Below are positions 46,967 to 51,130 of a stretch of 64,000 bases of DNA, piece by piece (positions within the stretch are counted from its first letter, which is position 1; each line of letters starts with the position of its first letter). Made by a program: the position numbers and the translations under genes. The DNA comes from an uncultured Chloroflexia bacterium. Its GTDB lineage: Bacteria; Chloroflexota; Limnocylindria; Limnocylindrales; CSP1-4. Under the pieces are notes generated by a model, which saw nothing but the letters and a program-made list of their open reading frames with translations, was not told where the DNA came from and searched no databases. The stretch lies in the NCBI GenBank assembly GCA_963749705.1, contig CAVVNQ010000007.1, positions 160,001 through 224,000 of the forward strand, read 5' to 3'.

Positions 46967-48262
46967 CTACGTAGCCCTGAGCGCCTCGCGCATCAGCTCG
47001 AACGCGCGATCGTGCTGGCCCGCACCCGCCAGCGCCTCTGCGAGCTCGCCCAGCACCTGTCGCACCTTTGCCGGCCTGCCTTCGCGCCGGACAAGGTCGG
47101 CGGCACGTTCGTACAGCGCCAGGGATTCGCCATCCTGGCCCTGGGCCCGGCGCGCTCGGGCAAGGGTGAGCACGGCGCCCAGCGTCGCGACGTCGCTCCC
47201 GACGTCCTCGGCGAGCGCGAGGGCCCGGGACGCGAGCTCCGCCGCCGCGCTCGTGTCGCCCGTGGCCAGCCGGATCTGGGCTTCGGTATCGGCCACGTAG
47301 GAGAGCCACAGCCGGTCCCCGCGCCGCTCGAAGAACCGGCGTGCGGCATCCGCCGCCTCGCGCGCCTTCTCGCTGTTCCCGAGCGCGAGGTATGAGAGCG
47401 CGAGATCCCGCTGGAGCGACGCGGCCTCGAACTCGGCCTGTGCGGCCCGCAACAGCGCGAGCCCCGAGGTGCCCGCACGGATCGCGGCCTCGAAGTCACC
47501 GGTGTGCCGGTAGCTGAACGCCAGGTCGAACAGGTAGACACCCCGCCGACGGTCGTCCAGCCCCTCGCTCAGCCCCCGGATCTCCTCGAGGTAGGCGAGC
47601 GCGACCGCGTGATCGCCATCGAGCGACGCGTTGCTCGACAGCGCCATCAGCACCCGCGCCTGGAAGTCGGGCTCCACGCGCAACCCGGCGCGTAGCCGGA
47701 CGAGGATCGAATCAAGGAGCGCCCGCGCCTCGACGGTGTTGCCCTGCTCGTACTGACCGCACGACAGCCAGTAGACAGCCAGCGCCTCCTCCGCGCCCCG
47801 TCCCAGGCTCGAGAACAGGCGCGCCGCCTCCGACGCCGCCCCGACCGCCTCCCTGCCGCGGTCGAGCCCCGCGTAGCCCTCGGCGAGCCCCAGCAGCAGC
47901 TCGGCCCGGGTCCCGTCGCCCGACGGCTGCTCGAGCAGCATCTGGTAGGCATCCACTGCCTGCTGCCAATGGCCCGCGGCCAGCTCGAGGTCCGCCTGGA
48001 GTCGCGTCCATTGCTCGGCCCTGTCCTCGAGGAACCGGCTGGTCGGCAGGTTGAGGCGCTCGGCGATGAAGCTCAGCGCGGCCATCGACGGGCGGCTGTG
48101 GCCATTCTCCAGGGCACTCACGTACGCCTTGGTGTACCGGTCCCCCGCAAGCTGCTGCTGGGTCAGGCCAGCCGCGAGCCTAGCCTGCCGGATCCGCGCG
48201 CCGATGGAGTGGGCGAGCTCGCCCCTGGTGGTTCGTGCGGTCGCGGTCGTCGGACGGTTCAT
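46967..48262 (-). CDS. XRE-HTH + TPR regulator (RRNPP-like architecture), ~431 aa
   Basis: N-terminal IGARIRQARLAAGLTQQQLAG…YVSALENG HTH followed by repeated helical TPR-like units (LAEGYAGLDRGREAV, LAFSYRHTGDFEAAI, LALSYLALGNSEKAR, LAEALAGAGQHDRAF); TACACT 7 nt before ATG. Confidence 0.88.
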   Translation of the reverse strand: MNRPTTATARTTRGELAHSIGARIRQARLAAGLTQQQLAGDRYTKAYVSALENGHSRPSMAALSFIAERLNLPTSRFLEDRAEQWTRLQADLELAAGHWQQAVDAYQMLLEQPSGDGTRAELLLGLAEGYAGLDRGREAVGAASEAARLFSSLGRGAEEALAVYWLSCGQYEQGNTVEARALLDSILVRLRAGLRVEPDFQARVLMALSSNASLDGDHAVALAYLEEIRGLSEGLDDRRRGVYLFDLAFSYRHTGDFEAAIRAGTSGLALLRAAQAEFEAASLQRDLALSYLALGNSEKAREAADAARRFFERRGDRLWLSYVADTEAQIRLATGDTSAAAELASRALALAEDVGSDVATLGAVLTLARARRAQGQDGESLALYERAADLVRREGRPAKVRQVLGELAEALAGAGQHDRAFELMREALRAT

Positions 48263-48560
48263 GCGCCGTAGTGTACGACTTGACCCGAGCGTCCGAGCGT
48301 GGCTCATCCCGGTTGACCCCGTCGATCAGCTCTCCGACGGTCACCCCGAGCCGCTCCGAGAGCAGCCACAGCGTGCCCAGCGACGGCAGCGTCAGCCCGC
48401 TCTCGAGCGCCGACACGTAGCCCCGCGACAGCGGCTGCCCGAGCTCGCTCTGGGTGAGGCCGCGCATCCGCCGCTGGGCACGCACGCGCCTGCCGAGCTC
48501 GATGGCCGTTGGTGAGCCCGGACCCCACCCCAGATGTTTAGCAATACTTGACTTCCGCAC
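48180..48560 (-). CDS. Stand-alone XRE-family HTH protein, paralogous to the HTH of the TPR regulator
   Basis: LGRRVRAQRRMRGLTQSELG…YVSALESG…LSERLGV; extended -10 TGcTAGTCT 7 nt before GTG 48560; 3' tail overlaps the start of the TPR gene. Confidence 0.8.
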   Translation of the reverse strand: MRKSSIAKHLGWGPGSPTAIELGRRVRAQRRMRGLTQSELGQPLSRGYVSALESGLTLPSLGTLWLLSERLGVTVGELIDGVNRDEPRSDARVKSYTTAHEPSDDRDRTNHQGRARPLHRRADPAG

Positions 48561-48577
48561 GATCTGAAGACTAGCAT
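48548..48577 (+). promoter_or_regulatory. Sigma70-type promoter for the peptide gene, overlapping the divergent HTH promoter
   Basis: TTGACT (48548-53)-N18-TAGCAT (48572-77); the minus-strand -10 lies at 48568-73. Confidence 0.65.
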
Positions 48578-48645
48578 TCCCGTCGATCGCTGGGAAACCA
48601 GCGGTTCCCCGGGTCACCGGCGAGCGCCAGTAGCTGGAGAATGCT

Positions 48646-48759
48646 GTGTCCGCTCGCCCCAACCGCATCCGCCCTTTCCTCGTCGCCCTGGCATCGGCCG
48701 GGATCATCGCCCTCCTCAGCGCCGCGGCTGCCCTCGCGCAGACGCCCTATCCGCACTGA
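48646..48759 (+). CDS. 37-aa secreted pre-peptide MSARPNRIRPFLVALASAGIIALLSAAAALA|QTPYPH, candidate signalling peptide
   Basis: RBS GGAGA 5 nt before GTG; basic n-region, hydrophobic h-region, A-L-A signal peptidase I site, 6-aa tail, TGA 48757-59; GC3-biased codons; below the ORF-track length cutoff. Confidence 0.8.
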   Translation: MSARPNRIRPFLVALASAGIIALLSAAAALAQTPYPH

Positions 48760-48787
48760 CCGAGCACTGACCGAGCACTGACCGAGC
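48753..48787 (+). repeat. 3 x 11-nt tandem repeat GCACTGACCGA overlapping the peptide stop codon
   Basis: Exact copies at 48753, 48764 and 48775; the last can pair with GTCGGTGC just downstream. Confidence 0.85.
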
Positions 48788-48974
48788 GTCGGTGCGCCCG
48801 AAACCGCCAACCGATTTGCCTGCTCGCCAGGGACCCGGGAACAGCGCACACGCGGGGGTACACTATTGGTAAACTCATGTCGTTCCTGGACCATGGTCCG
48901 ATGTCTGAGGGGAGGCCATCGTCCACAGCGACAAGCGGAGGGCATGCGTGGTCGCCCGTCGATCGGACGCCTGA

Positions 48975-49787
48975 GTGGGCGAACGCGCCGCCGGAGCCCG
49001 GGCGCGAATCGAAGGCGTCCTGGCCATGCCGGAGCTGCTCCGTCCGGCGTTCCAGCCGATCCTGTCGCTGGCAGACTGCTCGGTCGCCGGCTACGAGGCG
49101 TTCAGTCGCTTCCTCGTCGAGCCTGCGCGCCCGCCTGACCGCTGGTTCGCCGAGGCATCCCAGGTGGGGCTCGGCCCCGAGCTCCAGGCTCTCGCGATCG
49201 AGCGTGTTCTCGCTGCAGCGTCGGCCGCCCGCCTGCCCGACCGCGCCTTCCTGTCCGTCAACGTCAGCCCGCAATACCTCGACCATCCTGCGGTCGCCGC
49301 CGCGACCGCCGCAGCCGATCCGTCCAGGCTGGTCATCGAGATCACCGAGGAGGAGACCGTCGAGGACTACGGCGCCCTCCGGCAGGCGATGACGCGCTAC
49401 CTCGACCTGGGGGTCAGGTTCGGGGTCGACGATGCCGGCGCCGGCTTCGCGTCGATGCGCCACATCACCGAGCTCGGGCCGGCGTTCGTGAAGCTCGATG
49501 CGTCCCTCGTCCGGGGCATGCGCAGCCGCCGGACACTGCAGGCTTTCCTGCGGGCGCTCAACGGGTTCACGATCGAGGTCGGTGCGGTCCTGATCGCAGA
49601 GGGCGTCGAGAATCCCAACGACCTGGCGGTCCTGACCGAGACCGGCTTCCCGCTCCTGGCGCAGGGGTACGCGATCGCTCGACCCGGGCCGCCCTGGCCG
49701 AAGGTCAGCGCCACCGCGAGCCGCGCCTGGCTCGCCGCCTGCGCGGCGCGGCCGACCGGTGGCACCGCCCTCCTGTCGCCGGGCTGA
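48975..49787 (+). CDS. Stand-alone EAL domain protein (c-di-GMP phosphodiesterase-like)
   Basis: FQPI, YEAFSR, SVNVSP, EITE, DDAGAGFAS, VKLD, AEGVE, QGY; start uncertain. Confidence 0.9.
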   Translation: MGERAAGARARIEGVLAMPELLRPAFQPILSLADCSVAGYEAFSRFLVEPARPPDRWFAEASQVGLGPELQALAIERVLAAASAARLPDRAFLSVNVSPQYLDHPAVAAATAAADPSRLVIEITEEETVEDYGALRQAMTRYLDLGVRFGVDDAGAGFASMRHITELGPAFVKLDASLVRGMRSRRTLQAFLRALNGFTIEVGAVLIAEGVENPNDLAVLTETGFPLLAQGYAIARPGPPWPKVSATASRAWLAACAARPTGGTALLSPG

Positions 49788-49930
49788 CCCGCCGATCACT
49801 CCGGCTGGCTCGCGGGTTCGCGCAGCGTAAATTCCTGCGGGCGCGGGGCATCCGGCAGGACCATCTGGGAGGCCGGGGACCCCGAATGCGCCCCTGTCCC
49901 GGGCCGGGCCGGGCAACGAACATCGGGGCG

Positions 49931-51130
49931 ATGGCCCATCGTTCCGCCGCTGCGCTGCTCATCGCTGCCCTGGTCGCAGGCTGCTCCCCGATGGCGTCCA
50001 CCGCGCCCGCAGCCGACGCGGCGTCCACGTCCCCGGGGGTTGCCCGGGACGCGTCAACGATCGTCCCCGGCAATGCACCGTCGCCAACGGCGACGAACTC
50101 AGCGGGCATGCCGGCCCCGCCCTCGATGAGCTCCGGCCGGCCATCGCCGACGTCGGCGATCGACGACCCGGCAACGTCACCGACGCCGGCTGCAACGCGG
50201 ACGCCGGCACCCACACCCACGCCGAAGCCGACGCCCAAGCCGACCGCGAGCCCGGCCCCCAAGCCGACCGCGAGCCCGGCCCCCAAGCCGACCGCGAGCC
50301 CGGCCCCGAAGCCGCCGCCCCTGTCCGCCTGCCAGATCTTCCCGGCCAGCAACGCCTGGAACACCCGCGTCGACAACCTCCCTGTCGACCCTCGCTCGGC
50401 GGCGTACATCGCCGCGATCGGCCTGGACGCGGGACTCCACCCCGACTTCTCCGATGCCGGCGGCTACGGGATCCCGTACAACCTCGTCGGCGCCGCGACG
50501 CCGGACAGCGCCGTTCGCTTCGACTACGCGGACGAATCCGATCGCGTCGGCTACCCGATCCCGGCAAAGCCGAAGATCGAGGGCGGCTCGGACCGCCACC
50601 TGCTGATGGTCGACACCAGCGCCTGCCACCTGTACGAGCTGTACGACGCGGTCAGGACGTCAACCGGCTGGACGGCCGGCAGCGGTGCCACCTGGGACCT
50701 CCGCTCGAACAAGCTCCGCCCCGATGGCTGGACCAGCGCAGACGCCGCGGGCCTGCCCATCTTCCCCGGCCTGGCCCGCGCGGACGAGGTGCTCAAGGGC
50801 GCGATCGCCCACGCGCTCCGGTTCACCGCGCCCAGGACCTGTGCCGGGCACATCGCGCCCGCGCGCCACGACGCCGGCTCCGGATCCTGCGACACGCGGC
50901 CGCCGATGGGCCTTCGCGTCCGCCTCAAGGCATCGGTCGACCTGTCCGGGTTCGGGCCGCAGGCGCGGGCGGTGCTGGTCGCGCTCCAGCGCTACGGGAT
51001 GCTGCTCGCCGACAACGGCTCAGCCTGGTACATCACCGGCGCCCCCGACAGTCGCTGGGACGATGACGACCTCCACGCCCTGGGGCGCATCACCGGCGCC
51101 GACCTGGAGGTCGTCGACACCGGCGCCTGA
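49931..51130 (+). CDS. Lipoprotein with Pro/Thr-rich linker and uncharacterised C-terminal domain
   Basis: Lipobox LVAGC; CQIFPASNAWN…DESD…GSDRH…WTSADAAGLPIFPGL…HALRFT. Confidence 0.85.
   Translation: MAHRSAAALLIAALVAGCSPMASTAPAADAASTSPGVARDASTIVPGNAPSPTATNSAGMPAPPSMSSGRPSPTSAIDDPATSPTPAATRTPAPTPTPKPTPKPTASPAPKPTASPAPKPTASPAPKPPPLSACQIFPASNAWNTRVDNLPVDPRSAAYIAAIGLDAGLHPDFSDAGGYGIPYNLVGAATPDSAVRFDYADESDRVGYPIPAKPKIEGGSDRHLLMVDTSACHLYELYDAVRTSTGWTAGSGATWDLRSNKLRPDGWTSADAAGLPIFPGLARADEVLKGAIAHALRFTAPRTCAGHIAPARHDAGSGSCDTRPPMGLRVRLKASVDLSGFGPQARAVLVALQRYGMLLADNGSAWYITGAPDSRWDDDDLHALGRITGADLEVVDTGA
50234..50305 (+). repeat. 3 x 24-nt coding tandem repeat (PKPTASPA)
   Basis: CCCAAGCCGACCGCGAGCCCGGCC x3 inside the lipoprotein linker. 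Confidence 0.85.

Follow-up and report, generated by a model that had tools for sequence, protein, structure and literature searches.

The locus and its peptide gene

In the 64,000-nt stretch of DNA analysed here (contig CAVVNQ010000007.1 of assembly GCA_963749705.1, positions 160,001 to 224,000 of the forward strand; hereafter, the window), which derives from an uncultured soil Chloroflexota bacterium of the Limnocylindria, a 37-codon open reading frame (ORF) was found next to the gene of a regulator that combines a helix-turn-helix (HTH) domain with tetratricopeptide repeats (TPRs). The two genes are divergent. A small gene for another HTH protein, of the XRE family, lies between them, and a gene for an EAL-domain protein is the next one downstream of the ORF (Table 1). 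The predicted product of the ORF consists of a Sec-type signal peptide and a tail of six residues, QTPYPH. The ORF and the regulator gene are considered here as a candidate peptide-signalling cassette.

Every element that the initial annotation, made from the sequence alone, had listed for this ORF was seen in the window: a GGAGA ribosome-binding site, a GTG start, the n-region RPNRIR, a hydrophobic core, an A-L-A cleavage site, and QTPYPH followed by a stop. The n-region contributes three Arg residues and is followed by about 14 uncharged hydrophobic residues, and the c-region is Ala-rich, closing with A-L-A at codons 29-31. The Ala-rich c-region offers further A-x-A sites, two to four residues upstream of A-L-A, and the exact cut after A-L-A is therefore a prediction. 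Signal peptidase I genes are present in the genome.

Open frames come cheaply in a genome of ~72% GC, and it was therefore asked whether the ORF is a gene. The GC content at its first, second, and third codon positions is 0.73, 0.59, and 0.86, respectively. In an alignment of 63 members of the family described below, the synonymous share of single-base codon differences was 0.55 in frame, compared with 0.25 and 0.17 in the two shifted frames. Conservation of the frame in relatives, which the initial annotation had named as a check, was thereby borne out. Within the window clade (nine sequences), the codons of the QTPYPH tail vary at third positions only, and DNA similarity collapses immediately past the stop codon. 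The Shine-Dalgarno sequence and the GTG are invariant in all nine sequences, whereas a nearby out-of-frame ATG (48641) is not. By these comparisons, the ORF is a real, conserved gene.

Searches of Pfam and NCBIfam returned no family for the window peptide or for three of its relatives, and a protein atlas search with the 37-mer gave no usable match. A search for paralogous peptides in the same genome, which had also been proposed, found none: the next-best single-protein match had an E-value of 0.76, the family profile gave one match in G000, and the window genome has one copy.

Relatives were fetched from public genomes with the regulator as anchor; from the 449 stretches confirmed among 476 candidates, the 80 best loci were retained, nearly all of them titled Chloroflexota or Candidatus Limnocylindria metagenome-assembled genomes. 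A crude signal-peptide detector was positive in the syntenic slot of 68 of these 80 loci, with ~31 matches (counted by eye) elsewhere in all six frames, and looser inspection added one locus, L048. An additional sample covered eleven loci of the same genus; with the window included, a small divergent ORF whose N-terminus resembles a signal peptide was present in 10 of 12, one locus was cut by a contig end, and one had no such ORF.

Among the 63 aligned members, Ala occupies position -1 of the predicted cut in 98% and Arg is present in the n-region in 97%; residue -3 is V, A, T, or I across the family. In most members, the cut is followed by a Gly-rich linker and a core of five residues that ends in aromatic-Pro-(H/R/K), for example GGGDFPR, with two linker Gly residues at 84-86% and a Pro near the C-terminus at 87%; some members extend two or more residues beyond the core. 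The linker and the aromatic-Pro-(H/R/K) end persist across diverging leaders. Most family members have 39-41 aa, compared with 37 aa for the window peptide, and the window clade has lost the Gly linker, so that QTPYPH aligns with the +1 residue and the C-terminal core. A profile of the family matched 356 public protein clusters at E <= 0.01 among 3174 candidates. The clusters listed, at least 120, were all unnamed or "hypothetical protein" and had no Pfam domain, and gene finders call the relatives of the window peptide as hypothetical proteins.

The central idea of the initial annotation was that of a Sec pre-peptide whose only cargo, a very short C-terminal peptide, is meaningful solely as a signal and needs no second protease. 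This idea gains from the export signal, the -3/-1 motif, and the tail motif, all of which are kept in the family, and from the comparative link to the HTH-TPR regulator, which that annotation had not seen; none of this is direct evidence for translation, export, cleavage, or signalling. A Sec pre-peptide that carries only a short C-terminal signal is strongly supported by the comparative sequence evidence.

The accompanying suggestion, that the N-terminal Gln would cyclize to pyroglutamate, was weakened by the family comparison. Gln at +1 is limited to the window sub-clade, where one member has Glu, and outside this sub-clade the residue is D, G, V, A, S, or C. Glutaminyl cyclase (PF05096) was not found in this 88%-complete genome, and spontaneous cyclization of the N-terminal Gln is possible in the window peptide. 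Judged from the aligned sequences, pyroglutamate is not a feature of the family and is possible only in the window sub-clade. A Cys at +1 past the A-x-A, which gives a lipobox-like arrangement, was seen in L049, L090, L098, and several public proteins (e.g., P0006 and P0014); the residue at this position varies among V, A, S, and C, so that lipidation does not characterize the family.

Linkage to the regulator, family variants, and surrounding features

Linkage between the peptide gene and the regulator gene was tight in both anchoring directions. With the regulator as anchor, the 80 loci comprised 69 with a peptide gene of the signal-peptide form, 7 with a leaderless form, 1 interrupted by a contig end, 2 with none, and 1 that was unclear, which gives 76 of 80 with a peptide gene in either form. 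With the peptide as anchor, a divergent regulator was found within 1.5 kb in 21 of 25 non-self loci, and the four exceptions were one contig end and three weak matches. No other neighbor was conserved around the cassette. A distinct tail type goes with each regulator clade. The peptide and regulator genes adjoin each other directly and divergently in most relatives (~173 nt apart in L039, for example); in the window, their start codons are 338 bp apart. The regulator, which also matches the Pfam model TPR_2 at 1.2e-11, probably starts at Met16 (48262), to judge from the family consensus, which begins near this residue; its length would then be 431 aa.

Variants of the cassette were found within the family. 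At seven loci (L062, L067, L078, L080, L082, L084, and L093), a leaderless 12-codon peptide ORF lies upstream of the regulator gene. These ORFs have a strong Shine-Dalgarno sequence, consist only of a Gly linker and an aromatic-Pro end (GGGWPS type), and show synonymous variation between loci; no signal peptide was found at the seven loci in any frame. Five genomes of another genus (G165, G214, G110, G116, and G093) have three peptide genes each. The first of these is divergent from a regulator. The second (L138-L140, L142, and L143) is convergent with a second, more distant regulator, 42-43% identical to that of the window, and its tail is of a different, Pro-rich type. Orphan peptide genes (L134-L137 and L144) have an EamA transporter gene on one side and a fused 2-oxoacid dehydrogenase E1 gene on the other, with no regulator nearby. 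They encode an unrelated leader or signal peptide and a tail of the same type as that of the first gene, and in one genome the last nine residues of the orphan are identical to those of the linked peptide. Since different leaders carry the same tail, the tail appears to be the product and the leader only its vehicle. The existence of leaderless, convergently paired, and orphan second-copy variants also makes several "dialects" per genome possible.

In a class-level sample of 401 genomes (these tallies include eight genomes flagged as unpublished), the peptide profile matched 176, among them 87 of the 177 high-quality genomes, and 48 of 65 genera were represented. It matched 0 of 16 genomes in a sister family with genomes of ~1.0-1.4 Mb (f2, G025-G040), where the regulator gave one weak match among the same 16 genomes. 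In a phylum-wide sample, 24 of 401 genomes matched at E <= 1e-5, all but one of them within the class. The sole match from outside lies inside a 481-aa frame without a nearby regulator and was treated as false. Viral relatives were sought in IMG/VR, where 11 pattern matches were obtained and none was confirmed.

The peptide gene is preceded by the only promoter-like site in 48250-49050, where shuffled sequences lead one to expect 0.1. Both hexamers are invariant in all nine clade sequences and the spacer is variable. Across the family, 42 of 63 loci have ACTTGAC (median position -101 relative to the start codon) and 33 of 63 have AAGGAG (at -13). A conserved block directly upstream of the -35 hexamer is a perfect 13-bp palindrome in six relatives and is degenerate in the window. 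The 5′ leader, of ~60 nt, is predicted to form two stems, and the second is predicted to enclose the Shine-Dalgarno sequence and the GTG. The minimum free energy of the leader fold was -37.2 kcal/mol (z -2.57), and 2 of 200 shuffled sequences folded equally well. The second stem offers no covariation by which to test it, because both of its arms are invariant in the clade; if formed as modeled, it may gate translation. No terminator was found before the EAL gene.

The small XRE protein is 39% identical to the regulator's own HTH. Its gene is present in ~22 of the 80 loci, and its relatives share a conserved C-terminal stretch after the HTH. It is probably a co-repressor of this clade, derived from the HTH of the regulator. 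One of its candidate start codons, the GTG at 48560, lies inside the spacer of the peptide promoter on the opposite strand; at its stop end, the XRE gene overlaps the regulator ORF by ~80-130 nt. This arrangement suggests face-to-face overlapping transcription of the two divergent units. In 11 of the 80 loci, an EAL homologue adjoins the cassette, past the peptide gene in some and past the regulator gene in others, which hints at a link to the turnover of cyclic di-GMP (c-di-GMP); the EAL gene is a possible regulatory target. Downstream of it in the window, a 414-aa ORF (49886-51130, forward strand) has a signal-peptide-like N-terminus, a repeated linker rich in Pro, Thr, Ala, and Lys, and no Pfam match. 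An 11-nt tandem repeat begins at the end of the peptide gene; in L023, the closest relative, there are ~4 copies of a variant unit, and the repeat is absent from L024, L026, and L029. The stop codon lies in the first unit, and the copy number of the repeat therefore cannot alter the peptide.

Table 1. Features of the peptide-regulator locus, in window coordinates
Feature	Position	Strand	Remarks
HTH-TPR regulator, putative peptide receptor	46967-48307	-	446 aa from ATG 48307; HTH_3 2.1e-9, TPR_12 2.6e-18
Small XRE-family HTH gene	48180-48560	-	Start GTG 48560 or 48485; HTH_3 E 6.8e-10
Promoter of the peptide gene	48548-48577	+	Sigma-70-type; TTGACT (48548-48553), 18-nt spacer, TAGCAT (48572-48577)
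5′ leader with two predicted RNA stems	48585-48658	+	9-bp hairpin with GAAA loop (48585-48606); 8-bp GC stem (48619-48626/48651-48658)
Shine-Dalgarno GGAGA	48636-48640	+	5 nt upstream of GTG; GGAG kept in the clade
Peptide ORF	48646-48759	+	GTG start at 48646-48648; 37 codons and TGA (48757-48759)
Predicted Sec signal peptide, codons 1-31	48646-48738	+	GTG, n-region with 3 Arg, h-region, c-region to A-L-A
Predicted mature peptide QTPYPH, codons 32-37	48739-48756	+	TGA directly after
11-nt tandem repeat	48753-48787		3.2 perfect copies, from the last codon and stop of the peptide gene onward
EAL-domain gene (c-di-GMP phosphodiesterase-type)	48975-49787	+	Next gene downstream of the peptide gene; EAL 1.5e-42

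The regulator fold and known RRNPP systems

A model of the regulator, built with AlphaFold2 on a 78-row alignment, had a mean predicted local distance difference test (pLDDT) score of 89.8, with the HTH at residues 28-93 and 17 TPR-type helices at residues 102-444. This model was compared with known structures in an all-against-representatives search. Matches to receptors of the RRNPP class of peptide signalling systems included the Rap protein of phage phi105 with a bound hexapeptide (8rte_B; Z 25.8, root-mean-square deviation (rmsd) 3.9, 326 residues), RapI (Z 24.9), NprR-NprX (4gpk_A; Z 24.6, rmsd 4.8, 310 residues), AimR (Z 20.1 for 5zvv_A and 18.3 for 5xyb_A), and PlcR (Z 18.8, rmsd 11.1); a degron receptor also scored as high as or above Rap and NprR. 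Foldseek ranked generic TPR proteins first, with PlcR at rank 29 (3u3w_A, E 1.4e-6, whole protein aligned).

At the level of sequence, the best PDB match was PlcR (2qfc_A, E 2.3e-8), over the HTH only (residues 22-82). A PDB profile search gave weak matches to ComR and Rgg, again over the HTH only, and a weak match to RapH (E 2.3e-5, 92 residues). At E <= 0.01, only generic TPR and HTH models of Pfam matched the regulator. The modeled fold is compatible with an RRNPP-type peptide receptor and is no proof of one. A complex prediction for the TPR domain (residues 98-446, 63 rows) with the 37-aa propeptide (62 rows) scored 0.02 against a mark of 0.32, and was counted neither for nor against binding.

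In PMC10075063, TPR-receptor peptide pheromone systems are described as a speciality of the Firmicutes, and the screen reported there covered Firmicutes and viruses. The signature used there pairs a propeptide of 10-100 aa, carrying a Sec/signal peptidase I signal by SignalP or being an SHP/PrgQ-type PptAB substrate, with a receptor of 250-500 aa that contains TPRs, the two genes being direct neighbors at -60 to 400 bp. Set against the size and TPR requirements of PMC10075063, the propeptide of 37 aa and the TPR regulator of 446 or 431 aa both fall within range. Signal-peptide features, assessed by hand, comprise a charged n-region, an uncharged h-region, and A-x-A. The genes adjoin each other in relatives as the signature describes, and in the window their distance falls within the range with a gene interposed. 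Over its TPR domain, the regulator showed no sequence-level membership in the Rap, NprR, PlcR, Rgg, PrgX, AimR, or ComR subfamilies. Published RRNPP-like systems among the matches listed were all from Firmicutes. In the literature on RRNPP systems and on quorum sensing in Limnocylindria, no such system was found reported for Chloroflexota; the supplementary tables of PMC10075063 might list further taxa. By analogy, the cassette would work like an RRNPP system, without being a demonstrated member of the class.

Rap-Phr pairs provided the best RRNPP structural matches to the window regulator. Rap proteins are without an HTH and act as phosphatases or anti-activators, whereas the window regulator has one; Phr peptides are exported through Sec and need a second cleavage. 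NprR-NprX of the Bacillus cereus group is like the window cassette in its XRE-type HTH with about nine TPRs, its similar size, and its adjoining small gene for a Sec-type propeptide. It differs in belonging to the Bacillota rather than the Chloroflexota and in sharing no sequence family with the window proteins, and the window genes, unlike these, are divergent. NprX has a pro-region and requires further proteolysis, whereas the tail of the window peptide abuts the A-x-A site.

PlcR-PapR, also from the Bacillus cereus group, shares the XRE HTH and TPR receptor with the window, but PlcR has ~285 aa and five TPRs. The PapR signal is the extreme C-terminus of the propeptide, and PapR is processed by a secreted protease. 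In the arbitrium system (AimR-AimP) of Bacillus phages, the TPR receptor is a structural match; arbitrium is phage-borne with a different gene order, whereas the window cassette is chromosomal. The mature AimP signal is a hexapeptide, made up of the last six residues of a ~40-aa Sec propeptide, and extracellular trimming is needed for its release. Rgg-SHP, ComR-XIP, and PrgX-PrgQ include some divergent receptor/peptide pairs and some very short leaderless peptides, a mode that the seven leaderless 12-codon variants resemble. Unlike the peptides of these three systems, the window peptide has a classical Sec signal, and only the HTH part of their receptors was matched. The peptides of these systems are exported by PptAB and cut by Eep (in part after PMC10075063).

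A candidate signalling mechanism and its alternatives

The locus joins a conserved peptide family, export and cleavage motifs, linkage to a regulator, and a conserved promoter. Export, the position of the cut, import, binding, and regulatory output are what we infer from these, and we lean slightly toward an RRNPP-like two-gene peptide-signalling cassette that needs only signal peptidase I to release its signal. In such a cassette, the sigma-70-type promoter would drive a monocistronic mRNA, and the 37-aa product would be exported post-translationally via Sec. Signal peptidase I would cut after A-L-A and free QTPYPH directly, with no pro-region and no second protease involved. QTPYPH would then build up outside the cell and re-enter through an oligopeptide permease, for which five or six SBP_bac_5 (OppA/DppA-type) genes in the genome are candidates. 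Inside the cell, it would dock on the concave TPR face of the divergently encoded regulator, probably through the aromatic-Pro-basic C-terminus with its free carboxylate. Binding would shift the activity of the regulator at the intergenic region between the two genes and perhaps also at an EAL gene. The broader proposal is that of RRNPP-type, genetically encoded peptide quorum sensing, the first outside the Bacillota and represented by a whole family in the Limnocylindria, with a signal of 6-10 residues that is matured by signal peptidase I only and ends in aromatic-Pro-basic; to this proposal we give an even chance.

Several points weigh against the signalling cassette. Export, cleavage, binding, and expression of the window peptide rest on prediction; the sequencing runs found were six soil DNA runs from two studies, none of them RNA. 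Because several A-x-A sites are possible, the released peptide might have 6-10 residues, and the leaderless and orphan variants mean that not every member of the family takes the Sec route. SBP_bac_5 transporters, although necessary for the proposed re-import, are widespread, and their presence does not point to pheromone uptake in particular. The resemblance of the regulator is that of any long TPR superhelix: the eukaryotic proteins LGN and Pins top the structural list (Z 28), and domain III of MalT scores level with the Rap proteins. The regulator matched none of the Pfam or NCBIfam models for known RRNPP receptor families, the NCBIfam scores lying far below the cut-offs. Linkage among kin is not independent evidence, and in the window itself another HTH gene separates the peptide and regulator genes.

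The evidence for export and for a functional tail would apply equally if the peptide were exported and cleaved as a regulated product of the HTH-TPR protein, rather than as its ligand, and acted outside the cell on, for example, a membrane sensor, other organisms, or an enzyme. An aromatic-Pro-Arg/Lys/His end is reminiscent of positions P3-P1 in substrates of trypsin-type proteases. Such a role, which would also fit the orphan copies without an adjacent regulator and the generic TPR nature of the structural match, is nevertheless unlikely: the cytoplasmic HTH-TPR protein is the only conserved neighbor in both anchoring directions, no sensor kinase or other conserved partner lies nearby, and the pairing of each regulator clade with its own tail type extends to the convergent second pair in the same genomes. 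Another possibility, distinctly improbable in our view, is that the peptide stays uncleaved and spans the membrane once (N-in, C-out), as a micro-protein that tethers or modulates a partner in the manner of MgrB and other small membrane regulators. A near-invariant Ala at -1, a small or aliphatic residue at -3, and a polar or helix-breaking c-region would be needless in a mere anchor; moreover, the leaderless variants drop the helix and keep the tail, and the orphan copies carry an unrelated helix. The membrane role draws on the length of 37-41 aa, the single hydrophobic helix, the positively charged N-terminus, and the fact that cleavage is a prediction.

A small peptide with a conserved aromatic-X-basic end could also be the precursor of a ribosomally synthesized and post-translationally modified peptide (RiPP), whose short core would be modified by an enzyme. 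The TPR region of the regulator has a very weak NCBIfam match to a TPR protein of cyclophane RiPPs (33 bits against a cut-off of 1125), but this match amounts to generic TPR similarity, and the leader is a classical Sec signal rather than a RiPP leader. No radical S-adenosylmethionine enzyme or other modifying enzyme is conserved beside the cassette; on this ground the RiPP reading was rejected as very improbable. High-GC genomes hold many spurious ORFs, and the frame could be a chance one; it could also encode a leader peptide acting in cis on a gene downstream, for instance the EAL gene. The predicted stem around the Shine-Dalgarno sequence and start codon could be cited in support, as could the failure to find a terminator before the EAL gene. 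Chance is excluded by the frame-specific synonymous excess together with the 356 protein clusters and the 176 of 401 genomes. As to a leader peptide or secretion monitor, the next gene is convergent in ~30 loci, so that nothing lies downstream to be controlled there, and the EAL gene, adjacent in only 11 of the 80 loci, is often on the other side. We find an origin of either kind scarcely credible.

If the signalling cassette is real, peptide quorum sensing would extend over a wider range than is known, with the same logic operating in Chloroflexota. RRNPP-like signalling would then be far older and wider than thought, or would have evolved twice from XRE-HTH and TPR parts, and the question of common descent versus convergence would arise. 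Among systems of this class, one-step maturation by signal peptidase I only would be the simplest way of producing a mature pheromone, and the natural leaderless and orphan variants provide built-in comparisons. Limnocylindria abound in soils, and cultured members are few or absent. The candidate signal has six residues and is chemically trivial, which makes the hypothesis directly testable, and it might aid the cultivation of these bacteria.
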